Positions 6,849 to 22,009 are shown, counted from the stretch's first letter. The stretch: DNA of 64,000 bases from Actinomycetes bacterium (GCA_021823525.1 JAKANY010000005.1:861-64860), one strand, 5' to 3'. The notes: generated from the letters alone by a model not told the origin. Numbers and translations: made by a program.

Positions 6849-7702
6849 GACGGGCCGCCACCAAACTCCAGGGGTACCCCGATCCGAGTACGTCCAGCCT
6901 CGACGCCAACCCACGGCATCGAGGCCTCGTCACCGGGGACGTGCTGGTTCCGGAAGTCAACACCGACGACGTGGCCCGCGCGGTCGGCGGTGATGTCGTC
7001 CTGGTGCGATGGACTCATGTCCGGCACCGACGCGAGGTCGACCGGGTCTCGATGAACCAGTCGGGGCAGACCCGTTCCTGCGCCCGGCATGGTGCGCGGG
7101 CCAATCCGGCGCGACGACCGGCTCGCGTCCCTCCCCGCTCTCGGTCGCGAAGATGAGCGGATTCTCAAGAGCGTCTCGATGAAGGCGACACCGACGCCAA
7201 CGCGAACGAGGCGTTCGCCCACCCTAGGAATCCCGAAGACGCTATCGCCGGAGTCATGATTCGCCACTCTCCCGACATGCGCCGTACCGCCCTGCTCGAG
7301 CCATCGGAATGCGAACCGTCGAACCCGTTCGCGGTCGCGCTGACCACGGAGTGATCGGGCCGACGCTACGGCCGGATCACTCCTCCGGCTCTGGATTGGT
7401 GCACGCCACGCACGAGCACAACAGGACCCGGCAACGACCCAGCGAGAGAGGGCGGCCTCAAGGGGTCAGCGCGATACCCGGTGAGTCGTCCTTGGGCGGT
7501 TTCCACCGCTTGGGCTCAACTCGTCAGCGCAGCAACGGATCCAACGGGACTTCTCGTCCACGCGTCTCACGGCTTCCAGCCCGGCGGCGTCGTCCACGAC
7601 GCGACGCCGCCGCCGGGGCGCACGATCGCACGGGCGGGCACGCTGGTGCTATCCATTCATCGGGGAGTCGGCGCGAGCGCCGATTGGAGGGGACCAGACA
7701 CG

Positions 7703-9388
7703 GTGAGCGACCTTTCGTACGACCGGGGCATCGAACTCGGCGACCGCACGTGGTGGGTCGGCGCCGCGATGGCCGACGGGTCGTTTCCGAGCAACGTTTA
7801 TCTCATCGAGCAGGGCGATCGCTCCGTCGTCATCGACCCCGGATCGTCACTCGGCGCCGAGGAGACGGCGGAACGGATCAACGCGGTGGTCGGTCTGCGT
7901 AACGTGCGCTGGATCGTGTCCAGCCAACCCGACGCCGACAAGGTCGCGGCCCTGCCCCACCTCCTCTCGCGCGGGCTGCACCCCGAGGTCGCAGTCGTCA
8001 CCCACTGGCGGGCCCACGGGTCGCTGCGCCGCGCGGGCTTGGCCATCCCCCTGCACAGCATCGACGACGGGCGCCACCGCATCGAGCTGGACGACCGGAC
8101 CTTGCACTTCCTGCCCACGCCGTACCTGCGCTCGGCCGGGGCCTTCGCGACCTTCGACGAGCGCTCGAGAGTCCTCTTCAGCTCGGACCTCTTCGGCAGC
8201 TTCGAGTCCGGGTCCACGCTCTTCGTGGACGCCCCTGAAAATATCGACGCGATCCAGCGCTTCCACGTCTATTCCGTGGCGAGTCGCGACGTGCTCGCAC
8301 ACGCGCTGCTCGCAGTGCGATCGGCGAACCCGCGGATGATCGCACCCCAGCACGGACGCATCATCACCGAGGACTTCACCGACTTGGCAATCAGCGCCCT
8401 CAGCGACCTCGACTGCGGGGCCCTCCTGCTCACGCCCGACGACCCCGGTCTCTCGTTCCTCTTCGCGGCGAACCGGACAATCCACGGCATCATCAACACC
8501 CTCGTGAAGGAGCACGACTTCTCGACAGTCGCCGCGCACCTCGCGGGCCTGGCCGAGAAGACGCTCGGCGCCGAGTACTTCGAGCTGTGGGCGGGCACCA
8601 ACGGGGTGCTGTTTCGCTTCGAGCGCGAGGACGACTACGCCGGGCACCGCGACGTCCCGCCCGAGGACGTGGCCAGCGTGCTCGCCGGGCAGACCGTCGC
8701 GCCGGACCACCGGCTCGTCCTGGCGATGCGGTCGCCCTCGACGGGCACGATCGACGGAGTGATGCTCTGGGGCTTTCGCGAGCGGTGGGTGCCGAGCGAC
8801 GCGACGCTCGTGGTGCTGAACCAGATCATCTCGCTGGTCGAGGTCGGCCTCGAGCGCGAGATCCTGCGGCGCACCGCCGACCTCGAACTCTCGGAGTGGC
8901 ACACGCGCGCGATCTACGACCCGCTGACTGGACTGCGCAACCGTGCCTCGCTCGCCGACACTTACCACCAGCTCGCGGCCTTCGACGACCGCAACGCCGA
9001 GCCGCAGATGGCCGCGCTGATGGTCGACGTGGACCACTTCAAGGCCGTCAACGACACCTTCGGCCACGCCGTCGGCGACCTCGTGCTGCAGCGGATCGCG
9101 CACGCGATTCTCCAGAGCGTGCGCCCGAGCGACCCGTCCTTCCGCCTCGGCGGCGAGGAGTTCCTCGTGCTGCTCTCCAACGTCGACGGCACCGGTGCCG
9201 GCCTCGCCGCAGATCGGATCCGCGAGCGGGTCGCGCGCGCCACGCCCGACCTCCCGATCGTCACGGTCAGCGTCGGCCTGGCGATGCGTCGACTGAACGA
9301 GATCCAGGAGTTGCTGCTCTCGCGAGCCGACGCCGCCCTGTACCGCGCCAAGGAGAACGGCCGTGATCGCGTCGAGGTCGCCCCCTAG
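7703..9388 (+). CDS. MBL-fold (ODP/flavodiiron-like) + GAF-like + GGDEF diguanylate cyclase
   Basis: N-terminal NVYLI..VIDPG, FSSDLFG, IAPQHG; C-terminal YDPLTGLRNR, DVDHFKAVNDTFGHAVGD, RLGGEEF with an RxxD I-site. GTG 7703 follows GGAGG. Confidence 0.88.
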   Translation: MSDLSYDRGIELGDRTWWVGAAMADGSFPSNVYLIEQGDRSVVIDPGSSLGAEETAERINAVVGLRNVRWIVSSQPDADKVAALPHLLSRGLHPEVAVVTHWRAHGSLRRAGLAIPLHSIDDGRHRIELDDRTLHFLPTPYLRSAGAFATFDERSRVLFSSDLFGSFESGSTLFVDAPENIDAIQRFHVYSVASRDVLAHALLAVRSANPRMIAPQHGRIITEDFTDLAISALSDLDCGALLLTPDDPGLSFLFAANRTIHGIINTLVKEHDFSTVAAHLAGLAEKTLGAEYFELWAGTNGVLFRFEREDDYAGHRDVPPEDVASVLAGQTVAPDHRLVLAMRSPSTGTIDGVMLWGFRERWVPSDATLVVLNQIISLVEVGLEREILRRTADLELSEWHTRAIYDPLTGLRNRASLADTYHQLAAFDDRNAEPQMAALMVDVDHFKAVNDTFGHAVGDLVLQRIAHAILQSVRPSDPSFRLGGEEFLVLLSNVDGTGAGLAADRIRERVARATPDLPIVTVSVGLAMRRLNEIQELLLSRADAALYRAKENGRDRVEVAP

Positions 9389-10683: not shown

Positions 10684-12261
10684 TCAACGCGCTGAACTCA
10701 CGAGAGCGTCGACGAGCACCGTTGCGTAGGAGGACCGCAGAGCGCTGCTGTGGGGACCGCGAACCTCCACCGCGGCGCGCTCGCGCCCGTGGTGAATCAC
10801 GAGGATCGACCCGGCGTCGCGGGCTGGTCCGCTCACGCGCACAAAGCCGGCCGGCACGGTCAAACTCGCGCAGCCGCCGCGCACGAGGACCGTCGTTGGC
10901 CAGCGCGCCGCCGCACTCGCCGCGATCCTCACCTCCCAGGTCGTGCGCGCCCCACAGTGGCCGACCTCGACCAGGAGCGCCGAGCCCGACGTCATGCGTG
11001 CCGCGACGGGTGCCGGAACCGGGCGGTCGAGCGCCCGCGCCGCACCACCGGCGGCTTCGGCCAGCACCGGGCTCGCGGCCGGCGCGACGCTCGCAGCCAG
11101 CGCGGGCACCGAGCCCACGACGAGCACCCCCACGGCGACGAGCGACGCCGCCGAGGTGACCAGAGGCGCGAGACGCGGCACCCGGGCCGGGGCCTCGCTC
11201 GGAGCCGCGCGCAGCGCCAGGGCGCCCACGACCACGAGGATTGCCTGGGGCAGCATCGAGTTCGGGTCGGTCCCGACCCCTCCCCAGAAACCCATGTCCT
11301 GGACGATCACCCAGTCAACGAGCGTCAGCGCCACGAGCACGCCGACGCCCGCGCGCACGCTCGTGCGCCGACCCGTGAGCAGCAGCACACCGCTCGTCGT
11401 CATCAGCACCACGACGACGAGGTTCACCGCCCCGCCGTGCGCGCCCACGCCGCGAGCCGACGCCGCGATCAGCGACGCGAGCCAGTGGGGCTGGCTGTTG
11501 CCGGCCATGGTCTGGAGGGTCGCGGTGAGATTCCCGGTCGTGTGCCGGCCGGCGCCCTGCCAGGACCCGCGGCCCGGCCAGGCCTGCAGCAGCGCCATGG
11601 CCACCAGGAACGATCCGTAGATCGCCAGCAGGCGCCGTCCCAGGCGCGGCGTCCACGCGGTGAGGGGCAGGGCCACGAGCAGCCCGGCGACCGCGTAGAA
11701 GACCACGCCGCCCGGCGCGCCGGTGAGCCACGACAGGCCCGGGGCGAAGATGCCGCCGAAGGCCTCGCCGAGCGCCCACACGAGCACGCTCCAGGCCAGG
11801 CTGACCAGGCCCGCCGCCCGCGACCACCAGCCGCGCGGCGCGACCAGCAACCAGATCCCGATGCCCAGCTGGATCCACACCGCGGAGGCCGGGACACTGA
11901 TCGGGTGCTGGTTCCACAGGTTCCCGCCCCAGTTGACCATCGCCTGAACCCAGCCCGGGGACGTGCTGGCCGCGGGCGCCACCACCTGGGGCACCATCGC
12001 GAGCGGCATCGAGGCCTGGGCCTGAAGGATCCCGTCGAAGACCCAGATCGCCCCGAAGGCGACGCGCACCACGCACCGCGCCACGGGCTCGGCGGCGACG
12101 GCCGCCCGCGGCGCTCCGCGCAGCCGCCGCCAGGCGACAGCGCCCACGACCACGGCCAGCGCCACCGCGGCGATGGCCACCAGCTCGACGATCAGCTCGT
12201 GGTAGAAGCCCGACACCACCACCGGGCTTCCCGCCGACAACCCTGTCGACAGGCCCGGCAT
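10684..12261 (-). CDS. Polytopic membrane protein with two DoxX-like modules and a degenerate thioredoxin/SCO-like C-terminal tail
   Basis: RVAFGAIWVFDGILQAQ and GGVGTDPNSMLP motifs, many hydrophobic helices; soluble tail after ALDRPVPAP lacks CxxxC. Confidence 0.6.
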   Translation of the reverse strand: MPGLSTGLSAGSPVVVSGFYHELIVELVAIAAVALAVVVGAVAWRRLRGAPRAAVAAEPVARCVVRVAFGAIWVFDGILQAQASMPLAMVPQVVAPAASTSPGWVQAMVNWGGNLWNQHPISVPASAVWIQLGIGIWLLVAPRGWWSRAAGLVSLAWSVLVWALGEAFGGIFAPGLSWLTGAPGGVVFYAVAGLLVALPLTAWTPRLGRRLLAIYGSFLVAMALLQAWPGRGSWQGAGRHTTGNLTATLQTMAGNSQPHWLASLIAASARGVGAHGGAVNLVVVVLMTTSGVLLLTGRRTSVRAGVGVLVALTLVDWVIVQDMGFWGGVGTDPNSMLPQAILVVVGALALRAAPSEAPARVPRLAPLVTSAASLVAVGVLVVGSVPALAASVAPAASPVLAEAAGGAARALDRPVPAPVAARMTSGSALLVEVGHCGARTTWEVRIAASAAARWPTTVLVRGGCASLTVPAGFVRVSGPARDAGSILVIHHGRERAAVEVRGPHSSALRSSYATVLVDALVSSAR

Positions 12262-12265
12262 GGCC

Positions 12266-12820
12266 TCAGCCCTCCGTCGTCCGCGGCGAGCCCTGCTGGA
12301 CGCGCACCACGAGGGCGAGCAACGTGATCCACATCGCCAGCACCAGGGCCAGGAGCACGGCCACCGCCCAGCGGCCGATCAGGCCGTCGGTGCGCGTCGC
12401 GTTGATCGGCCCCGCGAAGGGGTCGGTGCGCGCGACCGACGCGGTCAGCGTGCCCTGGGCGATCGTCGAGCCGCCGAGGGCGGCGGTCGCCACGAAGCTC
12501 GTCGGACCGGCCCAGGTGGGCTGGTAGGTGAACGCGGCGACGCCTGACGCGTCGGTCGTGGCCCGGCCAATGGTCAGCAGGGGCGAGCCGGCGAACTCCG
12601 GGACGTGGACCTCGAAGGTCACGACCGCACCGGTGACCGGCGCACCCGCCGGCGAGTCGACGACGGCCGTGAGCGCGGTGCCCACGCCCGTGACCGGGGC
12701 GCCCGCGCGCAGCTGGAGGCTCGTGGCGCCCGACGCGCCCGCGACCCCGCCCAGGGCCAGCGCCAGGACGGCGACCCCGCCGACCAGCAGTCCCCCGAGC
12801 ACTCTCGTTGGCGTCCTCAC
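12266..12820 (-). CDS. Exported Ig-like (Big-type) protein with C-terminal membrane anchor
   Basis: GTG 12820 with AAGGAGG RBS, GTGA overlap with the upstream stop; signal peptide, beta-rich core (PVTGAVVTFEV, ATTDASGVAAFTY), C-terminal TM helix. Confidence 0.7.
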   Translation of the reverse strand: MRTPTRVLGGLLVGGVAVLALALGGVAGASGATSLQLRAGAPVTGVGTALTAVVDSPAGAPVTGAVVTFEVHVPEFAGSPLLTIGRATTDASGVAAFTYQPTWAGPTSFVATAALGGSTIAQGTLTASVARTDPFAGPINATRTDGLIGRWAVAVLLALVLAMWITLLALVVRVQQGSPRTTEG

Positions 12821-14214
12821 GACCGACCTCCTTGCGTCCGCGTCTCGTGGGCCAGCTCCTCCATCTCGGTGACCGACAGGGCCGGCACGAAGCGGAAGAC
12901 GATCAGGAGCAGCAGGAAGATGGCGGCGGTCGCGGCCACCGTGATCGAGATGGAGATCCAGGTGAAGTGGTAGGTCCCCCACCCCGTCGACACCCCGCCC
13001 GACGCCTTGGTCGCCGCGCGCACCAGGGGCTCGGTGGCGGCCGGGATCACGATGACGAGGCGCTTGACCCACAAGGAGAGCACCACGAAGACCGAGGCGA
13101 TGGTCACGCCGGTCTTGGTACGCAGGGGCTTGATCGCCATGATCAGCAGCGGCACGAGGCCGCCGGCCACGAAGTAGAACCAGAAGGGCACCCAGTAGCG
13201 GCCCGCGACGACCTGGTGGACCCAGGCCGCCGGTCCCGCGGTGTTGGAGTAGCCATCGATGAGGTACTCGGTGAAGGTCAGGTAGAGGTAGGCCGCACCG
13301 AAGGCGATCATCAAGAAGCCCAGGCGCACGAAGTGCCGCGACGCGATGTAGCTCTCCAGGTGGAACAGCTTGCGCACCGCGGCCACCGATATCACGACGA
13401 GGGCGACGCCCGAGTACAGGGCGGCCACGACGAAGTACACCGGGAGGATCGTCTCCATGTAGCCCGCCCGCGAGGAGGACGCGAAGGCAAAGCTGAGCAC
13501 CGAGTGCACCGAGACGGCCATGGGGATGATCATGATCGCGAGCAGCCCGATGGACCCGTTGAGGCGCCGGCGCTCGGTCGGCGTCCCGCCGTAGCGGCCC
13601 ACGAGGGTCCGGTAGAGCGTCTGGCGGACCTTCACCCGCGTCGAGGGGGCCTCGGCGTCGAGCTGCTCCAGGGCCACCTTGGCGTCGGGCACCAGGGGCA
13701 GGTAGAAGAAGACGATGGTCGCCATCAGGTAGGTCGACACCGCGAAGAAGTCCCAGAGGATCGGTGAGGACAGGTTCCAGTAGGGCGGCCAGACCAGCTC
13801 CCAGATCTTGCCCGGGTTCCCGAGGTGGGGGATGATGAAGATCATCCCGATGGGCAAGGTCACCAGCGCGGTCGCCTCGGCGATGCGCGTCAGGGGAGCG
13901 CGCCAACTCTGGTGGGTCAGGCGCAGGATCGCCGAGACGACGGCGCCTCCGTAACTCACGCCGATGAAGGTCACCAAGTTGGACTCGTAGATGCCCCAGA
14001 AGGCGTCGTCGTTGTAGCCCGCCGAGCCGAGCCCGTGGGCCAGCTGGAAGATCCACGCGACGATACCCAGCGCCACGACGGCCCCCAGAACCAGGACGCT
14101 CGGCCACCACCACCGTGGGGTCTCGAGCACCGGTCGCAGGACCGCGTGACGCAACTCGTGGTCGACCGGGTGCGCCTCGGAGGGCACCGGCTCGACGATC
14201 ACATCAGTCATCAC
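12817..14214 (-). CDS. nrfD: NrfD/PsrC-family membrane subunit, ActC-like
   Basis: About ten TM helices; VSAILRL..W..PLTRIAEA, PHLGNP, SSPILWDFFAVSTY, SVHSVLSF and PVYFVVAALYSG resemble alternative complex III ActC motifs. Confidence 0.88.
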   Translation of the reverse strand: MMTDVIVEPVPSEAHPVDHELRHAVLRPVLETPRWWWPSVLVLGAVVALGIVAWIFQLAHGLGSAGYNDDAFWGIYESNLVTFIGVSYGGAVVSAILRLTHQSWRAPLTRIAEATALVTLPIGMIFIIPHLGNPGKIWELVWPPYWNLSSPILWDFFAVSTYLMATIVFFYLPLVPDAKVALEQLDAEAPSTRVKVRQTLYRTLVGRYGGTPTERRRLNGSIGLLAIMIIPMAVSVHSVLSFAFASSSRAGYMETILPVYFVVAALYSGVALVVISVAAVRKLFHLESYIASRHFVRLGFLMIAFGAAYLYLTFTEYLIDGYSNTAGPAAWVHQVVAGRYWVPFWFYFVAGGLVPLLIMAIKPLRTKTGVTIASVFVVLSLWVKRLVIVIPAATEPLVRAATKASGGVSTGWGTYHFTWISISITVAATAAIFLLLLIVFRFVPALSVTEMEELAHETRTQGGRS

Positions 14215-14229
14215 ATTCCTCTCGTGGGG

Positions 14230-15075
14230 CTAGTCGCCCGAGTCGTTGTCGTTGACGAGGTCCTGGCCGTGGCCCGGGATGTAGAAGACGCGCGGGTGCG
14301 TCCCGTACTCCTCCTTGAAGACCATCCCGTTGTTCTCGGCCAGGAAGGTCGAGATCTTGATCGTCTGGCCCATCCCGTTCACCGCCGTGTCCGAGGTCAG
14401 GTCGCCGAAGTAGATGACGCCCATCGCGCAGTGCGTCGCGCACTCGGGGATCTGCCCGGTCGGCAGCATGGCCGCGCAGTCGATGCACTTGCCCACGGTC
14501 CCCTGCACCTGGGGCACCGGCCACTCGGGGCTCTGGGCGTAGGGCTGCTTCGGCGCGGGCTCGGGAGCTCCCCAATTGAAGTAGCGCGCGTCGTAGGGGC
14601 AGGCGTTCATGCAGATGCGCGTGCCGATGCACTTGGACTGGTCCACCAGCACCAGGCCCTCGGGCGTGCGGAAGTTGGCGCCCACCGGGCACACCGGCAC
14701 GCACGCCGGGTCCTCGCACTGCATGCACGGCCGCGGCATCGGGTACTCCTCGCCCGCGGCGTTGGTCATGGTGTAGACCTTCATCCACGTCTGGTCCTCG
14801 TGGAGGAAGTGCGCCGTCTGGCACGCGGTCGTGCACAGCTGACAGCCGTTGCACATGCGCAGGTCGATGATCATGCACCACTGCTTGGTCGGGCCGCTCG
14901 TCGTCGTCGTCGTTGACGCCGGCTCGGCGGCCAGAGCCACCGTCCCACCGACCGCGCCGAGCACGCCGAGCCCGATCCCGCCGATCGCCGCCGCACGCAG
15001 GACGCTGCGGCGCTGGATGGTGACGGCGGTTGCCGTCGCCCCCGCCGTCGTCGTGTCGATCATTGCCTCACTCAT
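14230..15075 (-). CDS. Tat-exported multi-Fe-S ferredoxin-type subunit (NrfC/PsrB/ActB2-like)
   Basis: Start MSEAMID (ATG 15075, TGATG overlap); QRRSVL twin-Arg signal; CNGCQLCTTAC, CMQCEDPACVPVC, CIGTRICMNAC, KCIDC-x11-CATHC. Confidence 0.92.
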   Translation of the reverse strand: MSEAMIDTTTAGATATAVTIQRRSVLRAAAIGGIGLGVLGAVGGTVALAAEPASTTTTTSGPTKQWCMIIDLRMCNGCQLCTTACQTAHFLHEDQTWMKVYTMTNAAGEEYPMPRPCMQCEDPACVPVCPVGANFRTPEGLVLVDQSKCIGTRICMNACPYDARYFNWGAPEPAPKQPYAQSPEWPVPQVQGTVGKCIDCAAMLPTGQIPECATHCAMGVIYFGDLTSDTAVNGMGQTIKISTFLAENNGMVFKEEYGTHPRVFYIPGHGQDLVNDNDSGD

Positions 15076-15815
15076 CAGTCCACCACCTTGATGTCGCCTT
15101 CCATCCAGTTCGTCGTCGACATGGCGCCACTGCCGCCGTTGGCGCCCGCACCGCACGGCGCGTAGCACTGCCACACGAAGGTTCCCGTCTTGGTCGGGAT
15201 GAACGTCGCTTCAACGGTGACGTGGCCGTTGCCCGTGGCCGCGGGGATCGGCATGTTGAAGTTGAACGCGTCGATCGTGAAGGTGTGGGCGACCGTCACG
15301 TCCGAGATCGACGACACGGTCTTGCCGCCGATCGTCTCGGTGCCGGTCGTGGACCCCATGACGTGGTCGAACATCATCTGGGCGCCCTGGAGGGGTGCCG
15401 TTCCGTTGTCGTAGCTGGTGATGATCACCGTGACCTTCTCGTCCTTCTTCACCGTCCAGGACGCGTTGGTGTACTTGGGCTGGCCGCCGAGCGCGCCCGT
15501 GGTGTTGGTGATGATCGACATGCGCTCAGTGACGGCGCCGTGGGCCACGACCGCCGGCACGGCCGTCGAGGGCTTGGTCGCGTCGCGGATGGCGGCCGCC
15601 ACTCCGCTCACGATCGCGACGGTCACGCCCAGGCCCACGAGGATCACGGCCAGCGAGCCGATCACGATCGTGCCGCCGGCGGCCGCCCGCTTGGGGCGTC
15701 GCCAGCTCAGGCGACCGAGACGGGCCAGCGGATCGCTGGCCCCGAGACGGGCGAGCGGATCCCGGGCGCTGTCGCGCCCGGGATCCGTCGTGCGGGAAGA
15801 GCGGTCGTCGCTCAC
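15075..15815 (-). CDS. Membrane-anchored cupredoxin-fold protein (copy C)
   Basis: GTG 15815 overlaps the upstream stop; single TM helix; AHTFT...WQCYAPCG...MSTTNWMEGDIKV. Confidence 0.75.
   Translation of the reverse strand: MSDDRSSRTTDPGRDSARDPLARLGASDPLARLGRLSWRRPKRAAAGGTIVIGSLAVILVGLGVTVAIVSGVAAAIRDATKPSTAVPAVVAHGAVTERMSIITNTTGALGGQPKYTNASWTVKKDEKVTVIITSYDNGTAPLQGAQMMFDHVMGSTTGTETIGGKTVSSISDVTVAHTFTIDAFNFNMPIPAATGNGHVTVEATFIPTKTGTFVWQCYAPCGAGANGGSGAMSTTNWMEGDIKVVD
15757..15786 (-). promoter_or_regulatory. 12-bp perfect stem-loop just after the stop of cupredoxin B (inside the 5' end of copy C)
   Basis: GGATCCCGGGCG (15757-15768) pairs with CGCCCGGGATCC (15775-15786); 6-nt loop. Confidence 0.55.
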
Positions 15816-16372
15816 GCCACGACCCGGATCTTGCCGGTCATCCACGTCATGGTCGACATGGCGCCGCTCATGCCGTTCGCGCCACTGCCGCAGGGGGCGT
15901 AGCAGTGCCACACGAACGTCCCGGTCTTCTCGGGCACGAAGGTCGCGCTGACCACGATGTGACCGCTCGTGGGCGCGACGGGGATCGGCATGTTGAAGTC
16001 GAGGCCCGGCACGGTGAAGGTGTGGGCGATGTTGATGTCCGACACCGTCGAGACGACCTTGCCGCCCGCCAGCTCCTTGCCGTTGGTGGTGCCCAAGACC
16101 TTGTCGTACTTCACGTAGCTGCCGACCAGGGGCGCGGTGCCGTCGTCGAAGCTGATGATGCGCACGGTGACCGTCTCACCCTTCTTCACGGTCCAACTGG
16201 AGTTGAGGATCTTGGGCCAGCCGGAGCGGCCGTCCATGTGACCCGTCACGAGACGCATGGTCTCGGTCACGTGCGTCGAGGCGGCGCTGGCCGACGTGGT
16301 CGCCAGGGCGCCGGTGGCCAGCGGGGCGAGGGCGAGAACCAGGGAGGCCGCCTTGGCCATCGGGTGCTTCAT
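15812..16372 (-). CDS. Secreted cupredoxin-fold protein (copy B)
   Basis: ATG 16372 with AGGAGG RBS; Sec signal MKHPMAKAASLVLALAPLA; AHTFT...WHCYAPCG...MSTMTWMTGKIRV. Confidence 0.8.
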   Translation of the reverse strand: MKHPMAKAASLVLALAPLATGALATTSASAASTHVTETMRLVTGHMDGRSGWPKILNSSWTVKKGETVTVRIISFDDGTAPLVGSYVKYDKVLGTTNGKELAGGKVVSTVSDINIAHTFTVPGLDFNMPIPVAPTSGHIVVSATFVPEKTGTFVWHCYAPCGSGANGMSGAMSTMTWMTGKIRVVA

Positions 16373-16424
16373 CGTGGAATTCCTCCTATGTGTGCTAAAT
16401 GTCATGGCTGGGGGGATTGGCGTC

Positions 16425-16461
16425 TCGCCTCGCGCCGCCCCTCGGGGGCGGCGCGAGGCGA
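16425..16461 (-). promoter_or_regulatory. 17-bp perfect stem-loop between cupredoxin A and B
   Basis: TCGCCTCGCGCCGCCCC (16425-16441) pairs with GGGGCGGCGCGAGGCGA (16445-16461); 3-nt loop; no U-tract on the minus strand. Confidence 0.7.
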
Positions 16462-16471
16462 AGGCGAACTG

Positions 16472-17032
16472 CTAGGCGAGGACCTTGATCTGGCCCTCCA
16501 TCCACGTCATGGTCGCCATGGAGCCCTTCATGCCGTCCGAGCCGCTGCCGCACGGGGCGTAGCAGTGCCAGATGAAGGTGCCGGACTTCTTGGCGACGAA
16601 GGTCGCGACGATGACGTTGGTCTTGCCCGTGGGCGCAGCGGGAATCGGCATGTTGAACCCGAGGCCCGGGATGGTGAAGGTGTGGGCGATGTTGATGTCC
16701 GACACCAGCGTGGTGGCCTTGCCGCTCACCAGCTCCTTGCCGGTGGTGGTGCCCATGACCTTGTCGTACTTCATGTAGTTGCCCGTCAGCGGGGCCGTGC
16801 CGTCATCGTGGTTGATGATGCGCACGGTGACCGTCTCGCCCTTCTTCACGGTCCAGCTGGAGTTCAGGATCCTGGGCTGTCCGCCGAGCGGGCCGGTCGT
16901 GTTGGTGACCAGCGTCATGGTCTCGGTGACGTGCGTCGAGGCGGCGCCCGCCATCCCGGCGACCAGGGCGCCGCTCGCCAGCGGGGCCAGTGCCAGGACC
17001 AGGGATGCCGCCTTGGCCATCGGGTGCTTCAT
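16472..17032 (-). CDS. Secreted cupredoxin-fold protein (copy A)
   Basis: AGGAGG RBS; same signal peptide start as copy B; AHTFT...WHCYAPCG...MATMTWMEGQIKV. Confidence 0.8.
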   Translation of the reverse strand: MKHPMAKAASLVLALAPLASGALVAGMAGAASTHVTETMTLVTNTTGPLGGQPRILNSSWTVKKGETVTVRIINHDDGTAPLTGNYMKYDKVMGTTTGKELVSGKATTLVSDINIAHTFTIPGLGFNMPIPAAPTGKTNVIVATFVAKKSGTFIWHCYAPCGSGSDGMKGSMATMTWMEGQIKVLA

Positions 17033-17072
17033 TCTGGGATTCCTCCTGTTTGGTGGTGGTACTGCCTCGCCA

Positions 17073-17102
17073 CCCGCCGCCGCCCCTTTTCCTGGCGGCG
17101 GG
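17073..17102 (-). promoter_or_regulatory. 9-bp stem-loop between cupredoxin D and A
   Basis: CCCGCCGCC (17073-17081) pairs with GGCGGCGGG (17094-17102); 12-nt loop. Confidence 0.5.
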
Positions 17103-17111
17103 AGACGACCT

Positions 17112-17669
17112 CTACGCCGTGACCTTCAGGAAGCCGCGCATGTACCCGTTGGTGGCCATCGACCACTTGTCGCAGGGCAGCGCGCAGAACCACTGGAACG
17201 TGCCGGTGGACTTGGGCGTGAAGGTGAAGTGGGTGACCGAGGGCGACGAGGCGCTCCCCGCAGGGGTGCTGGCGTTGATGTTGAAGTTGGGCAGCGTCCA
17301 GGTGTGGGCGTGCGCGTCGTAGTTGTAGATCACGACGTCGTAGGTGGTGCCCTTGGTCATGGTGAGCAGTCCGGGCACGAACGCGTCCTGGACGACGCCG
17401 TTGACCTTGACGCCACCGACCGGCGGCGGGTTGATCGAGAGCTTCACCGTCACGGCCTTCGGCGCACTGGCGACGGCGGGCGCGCTCGCGGTGACCGTCG
17501 TGGCCGCGCTCGGTCCCGTGACGCGGTGCCACACCCAGCCCACGCCCGCGGTCAGGGCGAAGAGCACTGCGGCGACGTAGACGGTCGCCAGCAGCAGGGT
17601 GACCAGGCCGCGCACGCGGCGGGGCTGCTCGCTCGTGGAAGGACGCAGGACGCTGGACTCGCTACTCAT
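17112..17669 (-). CDS. Membrane-anchored cupredoxin-fold protein (copy D, first gene of the operon)
   Basis: ATG 17669 with GAGGAG RBS; N-terminal TM; AHTWT...WFCALPCDKWSMATNGYMRGFLKV. Confidence 0.78.
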   Translation of the reverse strand: MSSESSVLRPSTSEQPRRVRGLVTLLLATVYVAAVLFALTAGVGWVWHRVTGPSAATTVTASAPAVASAPKAVTVKLSINPPPVGGVKVNGVVQDAFVPGLLTMTKGTTYDVVIYNYDAHAHTWTLPNFNINASTPAGSASSPSVTHFTFTPKSTGTFQWFCALPCDKWSMATNGYMRGFLKVTA

Positions 17670-17819: not shown

Positions 17820-18494
17820 GTGTCAGAGGGGCCAGCGGCGTCGGCGTCGCCGATCACGGTGGTCGTGGTCGACGACCACACGGTCGTGCGCCGGGGCACC
17901 CGCGAGATGCTCGAGCGCGAGCCCGACATCACCGTCGTCGACGACGTGGGGACCATTGAGGAGGCCCTGGCCGCCGTGCGACGCCACCAGCCCACGCTGC
18001 TGGTCGTCGACGTCGAGCTGCCTGACGGCTCCGGGGTCGACATCGTTCGGCACCTCGTGGAGGAGAACTCGCCGGTGCGCTGCCTCATGCTCTCGGCTCA
18101 CGACGACTACGTCTACTTCTCCGAGTCCCTGGCGGCCGGAGCCGCCGGGTACCTGCTCAAGACCGTCTCGACCGAGAAGTTCATCGCCGCGGTGCGCACC
18201 GTCGCCCTGGGGGGGACCGTGATCGACGGCGTCCTCTCCCACCGTCTGGCCGGGCGCCGCCAGCAGCCCGAGGAGCGCCTGGCGGCCTCGCTGACCGCGC
18301 GCGAGTTCGACGTGATCCGGGGCCTCGTGCGAGGGCGCTCCAACAAGGAGATCGCCAAGGAGCTCGGGGTGGGCCTGCGCACCGTCGAGAGCTACGTCTC
18401 GACGATCCTGTCCAAGCTCGGGGTGCGCTCGCGCGCCGAGGCCATCGTCTACGTCCTCGAGCACCACCTCGTGACGCCCGGGTCGGCCCGATGA
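17820..18494 (+). CDS. NarL/LuxR-family response regulator
   Basis: REC domain (VVDDH, VVDVELPD, GYLLK) plus LuxR HTH (LTAREFDV..GRSNKEIAKELGVGLRTVESY); TATCCT -10 lies 7 nt before the GTG (leaderless). Confidence 0.95.
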   Translation: MSEGPAASASPITVVVVDDHTVVRRGTREMLEREPDITVVDDVGTIEEALAAVRRHQPTLLVVDVELPDGSGVDIVRHLVEENSPVRCLMLSAHDDYVYFSESLAAGAAGYLLKTVSTEKFIAAVRTVALGGTVIDGVLSHRLAGRRQQPEERLAASLTAREFDVIRGLVRGRSNKEIAKELGVGLRTVESYVSTILSKLGVRSRAEAIVYVLEHHLVTPGSAR

Positions 18495-19891
18495 GCCCCG
18501 AGCCGCCCAGGGTCGCCCTGCGCGAGGTGCTCGCGCGCGCCCTCCACCCCCCGGTGCGCGAGCGGGCTTTCTGGTTCGTCCAACTCATGGTCGCCGTGTG
18601 GGCCGTCGTCCACCTGCTGATCGACGCGCACGGGTTCCTCAGTCCCTCGTGGTTCCCCTACGGGACACCCATCGACCTGCTCCTGATCCCGGTGGGCTAC
18701 GCGGCCCTCCACTACGGGCTCTCGGGCTCGGCCGCCACCACCCTGTGGTCGATCCTGCTGTGGATGCCCGATCTGCTCATGCCCGACGATCGGGGCCACT
18801 ACCACCACGACCTGGTCCAGCTGGCCGTCGTGGCCGTGGTCGCGCTCTTCGTGGGGCTCGAGATCGAGCGCTCCCATCTGCAGCGCAACCGCGCCGAGGC
18901 CGCCGAAGCCGAGCGACGCGCGGCCGAGGCCCACTACCACCAGCTCTTCGCCGCCAACATCGCGCCGATCCTGCTCGTCAACAGCGCGGGGCACGTCGTC
19001 GAGCACAACGAGGCCACGCGAACGCTCTGGGAGGACCCCCTGGGCCAGACCCTCGAGGAGTTGCTCGGCGTGGACCCGCGCGACTGGCCCGACTCGCTGA
19101 CGGTGGCCCTCGAGACCCCGAGCGGCGAGCGGACCTACCGCGTCTCGACGACGGTCCTCGCCGGCACCGCGCCTCCGCTCTCCCAGGTCATCCTCGAGGA
19201 CATCACGGCCGAGCGCCGCAGCGAGGCCGAGGCGCGCGCCTGGGCCATCGAGGTGCTGCGAGCCCAGGAGCAGGAGCGCCGCCGGATCGCCCGCGAGATC
19301 CACGACGACCCGCTCCAGGAACTGCTCCAGCTGGCGCGCGAGTTCGAGGTGCTCGAGCGCGGCACCTCCGAGACGGGCGTCACGACCGCGCGCGAGCACC
19401 TGCTCGACACCGTCGCGCACCTGCGCGAGGTGACTCGCGGGCTGCACCCGGCCGGGCTCGACCAGCACGGCCTGGTCGCCGCCCTGCGGGGCCTGCTCGT
19501 CGACGTCGAGATCGAGACGGGTGTGCTCACGAGCTTCGCGCTCGCGGGCGAGCCCCTGGACGAGCGACCCGAGGTCGAGGTGGCGCTCTTTCGCATCGTC
19601 CAGGAGGCGGTGCGCAACGCCGTGCGCCACGCCCGGGCCGATCACCTGCGCGTCGAGCTCGACATCGACGACGCGGCGGCGACCGTCACCATCACCGACG
19701 ACGGCGTGGGCTTCGACCCGGACACCAACCCCGCGAGCGGGCACCTCGGGCTCCAGAGCATGACCGAGCGTGCCGTGCTGCTCGGGGGCACCTGCGAGGT
19801 GGTGAGCGCCCCGGGGGCCGGGACGCGCGTGCGCGCGACCCTGCCGCTCGTGGCGACATCGGGTCTCCCCCTCGTCCGCCATCACGTCTGA
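18491..19891 (+). CDS. Sensor histidine kinase (membrane sensor, PAS-like, HisKA_3, HATPase)
   Basis: ERRRIAREIHDD H-box, QEAVRNAVRH N-box, DDGVGF and GLQSMTERA; ATGA overlap with the regulator. Confidence 0.93.
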   Translation: MSPEPPRVALREVLARALHPPVRERAFWFVQLMVAVWAVVHLLIDAHGFLSPSWFPYGTPIDLLLIPVGYAALHYGLSGSAATTLWSILLWMPDLLMPDDRGHYHHDLVQLAVVAVVALFVGLEIERSHLQRNRAEAAEAERRAAEAHYHQLFAANIAPILLVNSAGHVVEHNEATRTLWEDPLGQTLEELLGVDPRDWPDSLTVALETPSGERTYRVSTTVLAGTAPPLSQVILEDITAERRSEAEARAWAIEVLRAQEQERRRIAREIHDDPLQELLQLAREFEVLERGTSETGVTTAREHLLDTVAHLREVTRGLHPAGLDQHGLVAALRGLLVDVEIETGVLTSFALAGEPLDERPEVEVALFRIVQEAVRNAVRHARADHLRVELDIDDAAATVTITDDGVGFDPDTNPASGHLGLQSMTERAVLLGGTCEVVSAPGAGTRVRATLPLVATSGLPLVRHHV

Positions 19892-19906: not shown

Positions 19907-22009
19907 GTGGCGATGCGCACCGTCGGTCCGTCACGCCCACGCGCACCCCGCGCGCGGGTGCGGCGTGCGCTGACGCACCTGGTCGCGGCGCCGCGCGCCG
20001 CCGCGTCGCGCTGGCTCGCCACCACCACCTACGGGCGCAAGTGGCTGGTGCTGGGCTCGCTGATCGGGCTCGTGGCGGGACTCGGCGCCGTCGTGTTCTA
20101 CGAGGCGCTGGTGGGCGTCACGCACCTCCTGCTGGGCACGCTCGGCCAATACCGCCCACCCACGCCCGCGGGCGAGGGCGGGCTCGCGGGCAGCGGATCG
20201 TTCGCGCGTCCCTGGGCCATTCCCCTGATCGTCGCGGGCGGCGCGCTGCTCGCGAGCCTGCTCGTCGTCTACGTCGCCCCCGAGGCCGAGGGCCACGGGA
20301 CCGACGCGGCCATCGCGGCGGTGCATCACAACCCGCGCGGCATCCGCCTGCGCGCCGTCGCGGTCAAGATCGTCGCCTCGGCCCTGACCATCGGAGCGGG
20401 AGGCTCGGGCGGGCGCGAGGGGCCCACCGGCCAGATCAGCGCCGGCTTCGGCTCGGCCCTGGCGCGCCTGTTCGACCTCGGGCCCCGTGACGCGCGCATC
20501 GCCGTCTCGGCGGGGATCGGGTCGGGCATCGGGGCGATCTTCGGCGCCCCTCTCGGCGGAGCGGTGCTGGCCTCCGAGGTCCTCTACCGCGACGACTTCG
20601 AGGTCGACTCCCTGCTCCCCGCCTTCATCGCCTCGATCGTCGCGTACGCGCTGTTCGGCTCGATCCTGGGCTTCACGCCGCTGTTCGGCTACGTGGGCAC
20701 CTATCACCTTCTGAGCGCGGGACCGCTCGCCTGGTTCGCCGTCATCGGGGTCGTCAGCGGCCTGGTCGGCCTGGCCTACGCCACCGTCTTCTACCGCTTG
20801 GCCGACGCCTTCGCCCGCTCGCGCGTGCCGCGCTGGCTGCGCCCCGCCCTGGGCGGCCTGGTCGTGGGCCTGGTGGGCCTGGCTGTCCCCCAGGTCCTGG
20901 GAACCGGCTACGGCTGGGTCCAGCACGCCTTCGACCAGCGCCTGCTCGCGATGCCCCTGTGGCTGGTGCTGGTGATCCCGCTCGCGCGGATCGTGGCGAC
21001 GGGTCTGTCGATCGGCTCGGGGGGATCGGGCGGGATCTTCGGGCCCGGCATGGTCATCGGGGCGTTCGTGGGCGCGGCGGTGTGGCGCGTCTTCGCGCCC
21101 CTCACCCCGGGCCTCGGCCACGACCCAGCGCCCTTCGCCATCGTGGGCATGATGGCGTGCTTCGGCTCGATCGCCCGGGCGCCACTCGCGGTGATGCTCA
21201 TGGTTGCCGAGATGACCGGGACGCTGTCCCTGCTCATCCCGGCGATGGTGGCCGTGGGCATCGCCACGCTCATCGTCTCGCGCACCGACGCCACCATCTA
21301 CCGCAGCCAGCTGCGCAACCGAGCCGAGGCGCCCGCGCACCGGATCGTGACGGGCCTGCCGCTGCTCGCCACGGTGCGCGCCGAGGCCGCCGTCAGCCCG
21401 CCGCGCCTGGTCCTGGACGGCGCCACCCCCGTCGCCGCGGCAGCGGCGCTCGTGGACGAGCTGGGCGTCGCGGGCGCGCCGGTCGTCGACGACGACGGGC
21501 GCCTGCGCGGTGTGGTGCGCGTCACGGACCTCGCGGGCGCGAGCGCGACCCCCGAGCGACCGGTTGCCGACGTCGCCGACGGGGACGCCCTGCCCCTGCG
21601 CGGCTCGGACCACCTGGACCGGGTCGTCGAGGCGCTTCTCGCCACGCCCGACGCCTGGGCGCCGGTCGTGGACGACGCGCGCCACGTGGTGGGGGTGATC
21701 GGCCTCGCCGACGTGGTGCGCGCCTACCGCTCCAGCCTGCGCGAGCGCCTGGCCGCGCTCGCGCCCACGACGGACGTCGACGGCGTGCGCGCCCTGACCA
21801 TCGCACCGGGCTCGGCGCTCGACGGCGCACCGGTGCGCTCGACGGTCGTCCACGGCGTGCTGCTCACGACGATTCAGCGCGGCGATGCGATCATCGAGCC
21901 TCGCGGCACGACGGTGCTGGCCGCGGGCGATCGGATCACCGCGCTGGGCTCGGCGGGGGCCCTCGAGCGCGTCGCGCGTGCGGCGAGCACGCCGGGCCCG
22001 GCGAGCTAG
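19907..22009 (+). CDS. ClC-family chloride channel/antiporter with CBS and TrkA-C domains
   Basis: GHGTD, GSGGREGP, GGSGGIFGP motifs; CBS pair and C-terminal IQRGD..IEPRG RCK_C segment. The true start may be ATG 19913. Confidence 0.92.
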   Translation: MAMRTVGPSRPRAPRARVRRALTHLVAAPRAAASRWLATTTYGRKWLVLGSLIGLVAGLGAVVFYEALVGVTHLLLGTLGQYRPPTPAGEGGLAGSGSFARPWAIPLIVAGGALLASLLVVYVAPEAEGHGTDAAIAAVHHNPRGIRLRAVAVKIVASALTIGAGGSGGREGPTGQISAGFGSALARLFDLGPRDARIAVSAGIGSGIGAIFGAPLGGAVLASEVLYRDDFEVDSLLPAFIASIVAYALFGSILGFTPLFGYVGTYHLLSAGPLAWFAVIGVVSGLVGLAYATVFYRLADAFARSRVPRWLRPALGGLVVGLVGLAVPQVLGTGYGWVQHAFDQRLLAMPLWLVLVIPLARIVATGLSIGSGGSGGIFGPGMVIGAFVGAAVWRVFAPLTPGLGHDPAPFAIVGMMACFGSIARAPLAVMLMVAEMTGTLSLLIPAMVAVGIATLIVSRTDATIYRSQLRNRAEAPAHRIVTGLPLLATVRAEAAVSPPRLVLDGATPVAAAAALVDELGVAGAPVVDDDGRLRGVVRVTDLAGASATPERPVADVADGDALPLRGSDHLDRVVEALLATPDAWAPVVDDARHVVGVIGLADVVRAYRSSLRERLAALAPTTDVDGVRALTIAPGSALDGAPVRSTVVHGVLLTTIQRGDAIIEPRGTTVLAAGDRITALGSAGALERVARAASTPGPAS

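Follow-up and report, generated by a model that had tools for sequence, protein, structure and literature searches.

A conserved cupredoxin-NrfC-NrfD operon in an Acidimicrobiia-type bacterium from mine drainage, a putative haem-free and molybdenum-free relative of alternative complex III

We analysed a 64,000-nucleotide stretch of DNA from an Actinomycetes bacterium (GCA_021823525.1, JAKANY010000005.1:861-64860), referred to here as the window, which contains an operon of eight co-directional genes on the minus strand at positions 10684-17669. Consecutive genes either overlap through GTGA or TGATG junctions or are separated by short gaps, the only longer spacers lying after the first and the second gene. 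The initial annotation of the window, made from the nucleotide sequence, had listed four cupredoxin-fold proteins (Cup1-Cup4; two secreted and two membrane-anchored), an Fe-S protein, an NrfD protein, an Ig-like protein and a further membrane protein, and all of these genes are present. The absence of a molybdopterin subunit and of haem-binding motifs from the operon was borne out as well: no PF00384 domain is encoded, and none of the eight proteins contains a CxxCH motif. The third-position G+C content of all eight genes is 0.90-0.97, in a window of 69-77% G+C. The gene boundaries in Table 1 were refined from the junction sequences.

Table 1. Genes of the operon and the divergent two-component system (positions in the window)
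Feature	Position	Strand	Remarks
Cup1	17112-17669	-	ATG start, ribosome-binding site GGAGAG; 185 aa
Cup2	16472-17032	-	79-nt gap after Cup1; 186 aa
Cup3	15812-16372	-	start is the ATG after AGGAGGA, not 16405; 186 aa
Cup4	15075-15815	-	GTG start overlaps Cup3 stop (GTGA); 246 aa
NrfC-like Fe-S protein	14230-15075	-	ATG overlaps Cup4 stop (TGATG); 281 aa
NrfD	12817-14214	-	15 nt after NrfC; 465 aa, about 10 transmembrane helices
Ig-like protein	12266-12820	-	GTG overlaps NrfD stop (GTGA); 184 aa
Mem525	10684-12261	-	4 nt after Ig-like gene; 525-aa membrane protein
Two-component system	17820-19891	+	NarL-type response regulator 17820-18494, HisKA_3 kinase 18491-19891; Pfam matches

The arrangement is conserved well beyond this genome. 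In a scan that represented each prokaryotic species by a single genome, 170 stretches were found to encode the cupredoxin, and 78 loci were kept. A cupredoxin gene adjoins NrfC and NrfD genes in 61 of the 78 loci, and these span phyla. Nearly all of them belong to metagenome-assembled genomes (MAGs) from mines or acid drainage, and one is from Ferrimicrobium acidiphilum strain YE2023. The host itself is represented by an Acidimicrobiia-type MAG (1.83 Mb, 95% complete), and the source of the window is a mine-drainage metagenome. Together with the occurrence of the module in cultured F. acidiphilum, this agrees with the acidophilic Acidimicrobiia host supposed earlier. The gene order, including a divergent NarL-type regulator and its kinase, is shared with the same genus (G002, G030), with the same taxonomic order (G043, G050, G054) and with Ca. 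Dormibacteria, and a clade at about 52% NrfD identity has the identical architecture. G030, of the same genus, contains two full copies of the module, on contigs C27 (L014) and C89 (L015), each accompanied by a regulator and a kinase of its own. The NrfD proteins of Acidimicrobiia and Dormibacteria share 67% identity, a sign that the module may have spread laterally within the mine and acid-drainage habitat. In an even sample of the class, NrfD proteins at least 58% identical were found in only 4 of 401 genomes, or about 1% of the sampled Acidimicrobiia species; the module is accessory and tied to its habitat. Clustering of the neighbouring open reading frames of the 78 loci revealed no other conserved partner and no cytochrome, molybdenum enzyme or copper-homeostasis gene.

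The nearest NrfD relatives without cupredoxins are 34-47% identical. One of these loci (L114, G292:C6:60000-74562) encodes a 36% identical NrfD and an NrfC with a four-cysteine third motif, flanked by cytochromes with nine, seven and six CxxCH motifs, apparently the same core wired to multihaem proteins in another Acidimicrobiia lineage. Two others, L110 (G352:C13) and L115 (G200:C70), combine NrfC and NrfD with an anchored Ig-like protein and have no detectable adjacent cupredoxin; L115 also carries a Mem525-like gene, and the cupredoxins of G200 lie on another contig.

The membrane subunit NrfD was matched by the PF03916 profile with 101.1 bits (cut-off 25.8) over profile positions 5-309 of 313. 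It is the only PF03916 match in the whole genome, so that a second NrfD-like subunit corresponding to ActF is missing. When NrfD was compared with all sequences of the Protein Data Bank (PDB), the ActC subunits of the four structures of alternative complex III (ACIII) were aligned over the full length, namely those of 6F0K (3e-44), 6LOD (4e-42), 6BTM (4e-39) and 8K9E (2e-35). The sole other match was a weak one to ActF, and PsrC was not matched among the PDB sequences even at E<=1. We then mapped the 23 residues that are more than 95% conserved in 521 ActC sequences (PMC8076601 Table 2) onto NrfD through the 6F0K alignment. Thirteen of the 23 are kept, three of four at the quinol site, seven of 13 on the N-side and three of six on the P-side; those kept include the equivalents of His139, Ser164 and Asp169 of the quinol site and of Arg395, the putative gate on the P-side. 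Judged from its sequence, NrfD is thus ActC-like, as the initial annotation had it, without being a typical ActC, and carries a putative quinol site. In public annotation the same subunit is called 'polysulfide reductase'.

The Fe-S subunit begins with a twin-arginine leader (QRRSVL) followed by a hydrophobic stretch (TIQRRSVLRAAAIGGIGLGVLGAVGGTVALA), from which export by the twin-arginine translocation (Tat) pathway is predicted. Fifteen of its 16 cysteines are arranged in four cluster motifs of four, four, three and four residues. It was matched by Fer4_11 with 58.8 bits and by DsrO with 163.4 bits, the latter below the cut-off of 200, and further by PsrB (2e-27) and the B2 domain of ActB (3e-20). 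The alignment to ActB covers residues 796-953 of 6F0K_B, within the B2 domain, and the B1 domain is absent from NrfC. The third motif, CIGTRICMNACP, has threonine in place of the second cysteine. This threonine occurs in all 55 loci in which NrfD is at least 64% identical, the main cupredoxin-linked clade; the four-cysteine form (CIGCRMC) is kept in eight loci of the cupredoxin-linked clade at about 50% identity and in six more distant cupredoxin-free relatives. The motifs would accommodate three [4Fe-4S] clusters and one [3Fe-4S] cluster. A single [3Fe-4S] cluster is also present in ActB and QrcC (PMC8076601 Table 1).

As read from their sequences, Cup2 and Cup3 have Sec-type leaders, whereas in Cup1 and Cup4 a single transmembrane helix comes after an N-terminal tail. 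The C-terminal domain common to the four proteins gave weak matches, all below threshold, to COX2/CoxB and to the CuA domain at the C-terminus of NosZ, with 14.5 bits for COX2 of Pfam (cut-off 22) and 22.4 bits for CoxB of NCBIfam (cut-off 147.7). The CoxB and L-NosZ matches of Cup2 are weak, and Cup1 reached 21.9 bits with PF13473 (Cupredoxin_1), also below the cut-off. The AlphaFold2 model of Cup2 (pLDDT 87.4) has a cupredoxin fold. Foldseek related this model to CotA domains, the NosZ CuA domain, nitrosocyanin, rusticyanin and AcoP; the probability was 1.00 for the NosZ CuA domain, CotA, rusticyanin and AcoP, at TM-scores of only about 0.4. The cupredoxin label holds for the fold, while the sequences resemble the CuA domains of COX2 and of the NosZ C-terminus and not the blue-copper proteins. 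Among 1.84 billion representatives, the family accounts for 413 clusters (50% identity, E<=1e-10), and nearly all of its 145 close members are annotated as 'hypothetical' and have no Pfam domain.

The putative metal site of these proteins departs from both familiar types of copper site. In Cup1, it reads H...C-x3-C-x4-M-x5-M, a short-loop variant. In an alignment of 46 sequences, C157, P160, C161, M172, M178, D76 and N127 are invariant and H117 is nearly so. Profile alignment places H117, C157 and C161 onto His583, Cys618 and Cys622 of the NosZ CuA domain, and the same residues align with the CuA histidine and cysteine pair of this genome's COX2. The complete CuA ligand set, H...C-x3-C-x3-H-x2-M, is not found; the invariant M172 and M178 stand in its place. 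The loop of type-1 blue copper, H...C-x(2-4)-H-x(2-5)-M, is not found either, and the loop here is C-x3-C-...-M-x5-M without histidine. The first half of the site is hence CuA-like and the second half is novel, and one or more copper ions might be bound there.

A phylogenetic tree divides the family into four groups: the Cup1 type, an oxidase-linked type, a stand-alone type of Bacillota and the type adjacent to NrfC. Cup1, encoded by the first gene of the operon, falls into a separate and strongly supported clade. Cup2 and Cup3, which are 73% identical, group together in a young clade whose sister is the NrfC-adjacent cupredoxin, and they are, from this topology, recent duplicates of that copy. 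The cupredoxin immediately upstream of NrfC, represented here by Cup4, is the conserved core copy, occurring in 60 loci; through its GTGA and TGATG overlaps, Cup4 is translationally coupled to both Cup3 and NrfC. The N-terminus of Cup4 (15663-15815) contains a conserved tandem motif, DPLxRLG...DPLxRLGRLSWRRP, in the cytoplasmic tail ahead of the transmembrane helix; the motif is shared by P0043, P0050 and P0058, and its arginine pair could be part of a Tat-type signal anchor. Stand-alone members of the Cup family occur in Bacillota, including Sulfobacillus benefaciens, and one in a Bacillota MAG (L022, GCA_019683835.1) lies near genes for the iron permease FTR1 and an Fe-dependent repressor.

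The Ig-like protein has an N-terminal leader and a C-terminal transmembrane anchor and is extracytoplasmic; its label goes back to sub-threshold matches to Big_1 (21.7 bits). Its gene lies 3' of NrfD in most loci, and P0221 is a natural fusion in which NrfD continues at its C-terminus into an Ig-like protein (35% identity over 126 aa, E 2e-8). The Ig-like protein is likely to be a stoichiometric subunit. Mem525 is polytopic, with a conserved N-terminal region of about 300 aa and a lineage-specific C-terminal region of about 190 aa. The N-domain, found in 30-43 loci and often encoded between NrfC and NrfD, has invariant W, D, Q, E and G residues and no conserved His or Cys. Mem525 was matched by no Pfam or NCBIfam profile. 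The AlphaFold2 model of its N-domain is all-helical (pLDDT 82), and the sole probable Foldseek match in the PDB was NACHO/TMEM35A (probability 0.84, E 1.3), with none at E<=0.001; we take NACHO to be a member of the DoxX family. The designation of Mem525 as DoxX-like found only faint support: DoxX, DoxX_2 and DoxX_3 gave no match at E<=5, and only one of 22 relatives touched DoxX_3 (E 0.0098). The kinase of the divergent two-component system has a membrane and PAS-like sensor, and regulator and kinase genes adjoin the operon in 36-40 of the 78 loci, so this system is the probable regulator of the operon.

NrfCD modules normally dock a catalytic subunit (PMC8076601). A single PF00384 match was found in the genome, and it is NuoG, inside the nuo operon; a partner with a molybdenum bis-pyranopterin guanine dinucleotide (Mo-bisPGD) cofactor elsewhere in this 95%-complete genome was therefore rejected. 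The description 'cytochrome-free' applies to the operon and does not extend to the genome. A scan for CxxCH filtered by third-position G+C had given no c-type cytochrome, and the unfiltered scan found the dihaem QcrC, encoded in a canonical actinobacterial ctaE-qcrC-qcrA-qcrB cluster; an aa3 oxidase is also present. QcrC is the sole c-type cytochrome found, and there is no multihaem cytochrome. QcrB is kept in all 12 operon-bearing genomes tested, which excludes the module as a replacement of the bc1 complex and makes it an accessory. In contig C37 (8509-13751), we identified a second haem-copper oxidase operon, cup-coxB-coxA-coxC-ctaG-like, in which an anchored 234-aa cupredoxin of the Cup family is encoded directly upstream of coxB. 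At least 24 genomes of the genus share this synteny of cup, coxB and coxA. F. acidiphilum and G450 have it two times each, and G451 and G216 have it as well; the oxidase-linked cupredoxins form one clade in the tree. The C37 cupredoxin and its close relatives have an extra C-x4-C pair in an insert (VCGAGPC) beside the H/Cx3C/M/M set. An obligate coupling of the module to this second oxidase is ruled out, because five of the 12 operon-bearing genomes are without a cupredoxin-linked oxidase and most genomes of the genus have the oxidase and not the module.

Among known systems, ACIII (ActABCDEF) is the closest to the module. It is a quinol:cytochrome c/HiPIP/auracyanin oxidoreductase whose ActC is the nearest relative of NrfD over the full length, and both systems combine motifs for one [3Fe-4S]-type and three [4Fe-4S] clusters in the periplasmic Fe-S subunit with the absence of a molybdenum cofactor. 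In Chloroflexus, ACIII finally delivers its electrons to the cupredoxin auracyanin, and ACIII operons are often linked to haem-copper oxidases. Unlike ACIII, the module has no pentahaem ActA, no monohaem ActE, no ActB B1, and no ActF, ActD or ActG; it encodes cupredoxins as operon subunits, with the Ig-like protein and Mem525 as additional components. In the SoxM supercomplex of Sulfolobus, the anchored sulfocyanin SoxE, and not cytochrome c, connects a quinol-oxidising module with a haem-copper oxidase. The likeness lies in a membrane-anchored copper protein taking the place of cytochrome c in an acidophile; the quinol module of SoxM is of the Rieske/cytochrome b type, where NrfCD is found here, and sulfocyanin is a type-1 blue copper protein. 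NosGH, from clade II nos clusters such as that of Wolinella succinogenes, is a molybdenum-less menaquinol dehydrogenase of the NrfC/NrfD type whose electrons end on the CuA domain of NosZ. It differs in routing these electrons through the cytochromes NosC1 and NosC2, in delivering them to a CuA domain built into the catalytic NosZ and in having an NrfD subunit that does not resemble ActC; no nos genes are found in this genome. DsrOP of DsrMKJOP and QrcCD of QrcABCD likewise pair a periplasmic four-cluster Fe-S subunit with a 10-helix NrfD-like subunit, but they work with the haem c subunits DsrJ or QrcA, and neither DsrMK nor QrcB is found here. The rus operon of Acidithiobacillus ferrooxidans (cyc2-cyc1-acoP-coxBACD-rus) is another acidophile chain with cupredoxin carriers in multiple copies, and its transmembrane-anchored acoP ('cup') lies directly upstream of coxB, as in the cup-coxB-coxA arrangement of the Cup family (bioRxiv 10.1101/2020.03.01.968255). 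The rus chain differs in using the c-type cytochromes Cyc2 and Cyc1 and bc1 as the quinone link, and AcoP and rusticyanin have mononuclear His-Cys-His-Met sites instead of H-Cx3C-M-M. We found no description of an NrfD or ACIII module with cupredoxins in the literature on either system with cupredoxins, Acidimicrobiia or acid mine drainage, in line with the earlier impression that the arrangement is undescribed, and a review of the NrfD family gives no copper-linked complex (PMC8076601).

We consider it about 60% probable that the operon encodes a haem-free and molybdenum-free relative of ACIII functioning as a menaquinol:cupredoxin oxidoreductase. Menaquinol would be oxidised at a P-side site of the ActC-like NrfD, and the electrons would enter the adjacent [3Fe-4S]-type cluster of the NrfC/ActB2-like subunit and then pass along its three [4Fe-4S] clusters. 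They might leave through the membrane-anchored Cup4, the product of the gene coupled in translation to NrfC, standing in for the haem subunits ActA and ActE. The anchored Cup1 and the secreted Cup2 and Cup3 could then relay electrons between like proteins to a high-potential acceptor, of which the likeliest would be the second aa3-type oxidase with its own Cup-family cupredoxin, or alternatively soluble Fe(III) at low pH. A role as structural or membrane subunits would fall to the Ig-like protein and the cofactor-less N-domain of Mem525, and the divergent NarL-type two-component system would turn the operon on. The initial annotation had called the complex 'cupredoxin-fed'; the cupredoxins stood, whereas the evidence on direction, if anything, points the opposite way, from quinol to cupredoxin. 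Quinol oxidation is the favoured direction in view of the [3Fe-4S] signature, the resemblance of NrfD to ActC and the lack of autotrophy. RuBisCO is missing in 11 of the 12 operon-bearing genomes; uphill flow for CO2 fixation would hence not be needed, and an uphill role in autotrophy is disfavoured.

Several observations weigh against this assignment. The ActB B1 domain, ActF, ActA and ActE are all missing, and ten of the 23 ActC signature residues are changed in NrfD, with Asp253 replaced by Ala and Glu394 by Lys. The second CuA histidine is missing, no histidine following the second cysteine in any of the 46 aligned members, and the Cys/Met-rich site resembles sites of Cu(I) trafficking, so that redox-active copper is only putative. 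Secreted, unanchored carriers are awkward for a monoderm cell. The universal presence of QcrB among the 12 genomes, the five of them that lack the cupredoxin-linked second oxidase, and the fact that most genomes of the genus have such an oxidase without the NrfCD module also count against it. Finally, the assignment draws on sequence evidence throughout.

The first alternative shifts the emphasis from oxidase to iron. The surface cupredoxins might react directly with soluble iron at low pH, and the module would then act as a menaquinol:Fe(III) reductase under anoxia or as a reversible Fe(II):quinone link, not mainly feeding an oxidase. The near confinement of the module to mine and acid-drainage lineages across phyla fits this idea, as do the operon-bearing genomes without a cupredoxin-linked oxidase (five of 12) and the stand-alone Cup-family members of acidophilic Bacillota such as Sulfobacillus, one of which neighbours FTR1 and an Fe-dependent repressor. 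The module also occurs in F. acidiphilum, an Fe(II) oxidiser and Fe(III) reducer in which aa3 alone is visible and multihaem cytochromes are absent (PMC8350767, PMC8790237). However, a reaction between these cupredoxins and iron is purely hypothetical, electron transfer from high-potential copper to low-potential Fe-S clusters would be uphill and thermodynamically hard, RuBisCO is missing in most hosts, and the close form of the module is confined to the roughly 1% of sampled Acidimicrobiia species mentioned above. We regard this alternative as unlikely.

The cupredoxins could instead handle copper, either as Cu(I) chaperones with Cys/Met-rich sites or as parts of a quinol-powered Cu(II)/thiol reductase system working through NrfCD, for CuA assembly or for copper tolerance in metal-rich acid water. 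The site has two cysteines and two invariant methionines and is without the second CuA histidine. Chaperones for Cu(I) with a cupredoxin fold, CupA of Streptococcus pneumoniae among them, rely on Cys/Met sites, and the fold of PCuAC is cupredoxin-like. One Cup-family member is encoded upstream of coxB, a possible position for an assembly factor, and the habitat is rich in copper. Nevertheless, a four-cluster one-electron wire and an ActC-type quinol site suit electron transfer, genes for CopA, CopZ, CsoR, Sco and PCuAC are not conserved near the 78 loci, and the H...Cx3C register is that of CuA electron-transfer sites. AcoP, likewise encoded upstream of coxB, sets a redox precedent for this position (bioRxiv 10.1101/2020.03.01.968255). 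Copper handling is, in our estimate, quite improbable as the function of the module.

A sulfur module seems very improbable. It would be a quinone-linked system like DsrOP or TQO that acts on compounds such as thiosulfate or polysulfide, and the DoxX-like protein would be its second quinone subunit. The best NCBIfam matches are indeed to DsrO (163.4 bits) and DsrP (74.6 bits), Mem525 gives a faint DoxX-like signal, and the public label of NrfD names polysulfide, but both scores are below the cut-offs (200 for DsrO and 350 for DsrP), the genome encodes no DsrJ, DsrK, DsrM, PsrA or molybdenum enzyme of this kind, NrfD prefers ActC (3e-44) to PsrC (unmatched at E<=1), and DsrOP and TQO systems would leave the conserved cupredoxins without a role. 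That NrfCD serves a catalytic partner encoded elsewhere, with the cupredoxins as unrelated neighbours, would follow the usual docking of NrfCD to a catalytic subunit (PMC8076601) and is scarcely credible, given a genome in which NuoG is the only candidate Mo-bisPGD protein and multihaem cytochromes are missing, the TGATG overlap of Cup4 and NrfC, and the linkage of cupredoxin, NrfC and NrfD in 61 of 78 loci across phyla.

A menaquinol:cupredoxin oxidoreductase of this composition would extend the NrfCD and ACIII-type systems by a conserved module. The known exits from the quinol pool to high-potential carriers are bc1/b6f and ACIII, both of them haem-based, and a module built from Fe-S clusters and copper only would be a third design. 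It would also show that exit modules of different kinds can be attached to the ActB2/ActC core. A CuA-like site with methionine for the second histidine would be of interest to the chemistry of copper sites. The Gram-positive acidophiles Ferrimicrobium, Acidimicrobiaceae and Sulfobacillus drive bioleaching and the chemistry of acid mine drainage, but the chains by which they oxidise Fe(II) and reduce Fe(III) have yet to be defined; mechanisms of Fe(III) reduction have been modelled for Acidithiobacillus only (PMC8790237). The module and the cupredoxin gene upstream of coxB are concrete candidates for the iron chain, and both occur in one cultured strain. Labels such as 'polysulfide reductase' and 'hypothetical' misdirect the metabolic reconstruction of mine-drainage MAGs.

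In a tentative and rather doubtful extension, the module might supply the link to the quinone pool that is missing from the iron respiration of Gram-positive acidophiles. It would then be a haem-free 'copper complex III', an ActC/Fe-S core connected to surface cupredoxins with a new, CuA-derived His-Cys2-Met2 centre that is possibly binuclear. These cupredoxins would exchange electrons both with an aa3 oxidase of the rus type and, directly, with dissolved Fe(II)/Fe(III) at pH 2. In F. acidiphilum, only the aa3-type 'cytochrome 605' is visibly redox-active and multihaem cytochromes are absent (PMC8350767); if this extension were true, it would explain why an aa3 oxidase is the sole one that is spectrally visible.

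The transcription of the operon was approached from the spacers and from metatranscriptomes. The Cup2-Cup3 spacer (16373-16471) contains an 18-bp perfect GC hairpin without a U-tail; its predicted folding energy is -46.8 kcal/mol (z = -5.4), and none of 200 shuffled sequences was equally stable. It is possibly an internal attenuator or a transcript-stabilising element. The Cup1-Cup2 spacer (17033-17111) forms a weaker hairpin (z = -1.6). Both hairpins together may yield an abundant short Cup1-Cup2 transcript, comparable to the excess of rusticyanin in the rus system. A scan for promoters and terminators found no sigma-70-like promoter and terminator-like sites at chance level. In two mine-drainage metatranscriptomes of the same study (X4 and X5), short contigs 85-90% identical to the window were found over NrfD, NrfC, Cup3 and Cup2 (13456-16689), and no transcripts of this organism itself were detected. 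Because the matching contigs come from relatives, they say nothing on co-transcription in this organism, and related strains appear to transcribe their own copies of the module in situ.

Two neighbouring genes on the plus strand were noted. The protein encoded at 7481-9388 combines an ODP-type metallo-beta-lactamase domain (128 bits) with GGDEF (129 bits) and could be a diguanylate cyclase sensing O2, NO or iron; its homologues are found near the module in three other loci (L075, L083 and L097). Adjoining the two-component system at 19907-22009 is a gene for a ClC-type channel or antiporter with CBS and TrkA_C domains, which is typical of acid-tolerant cells.

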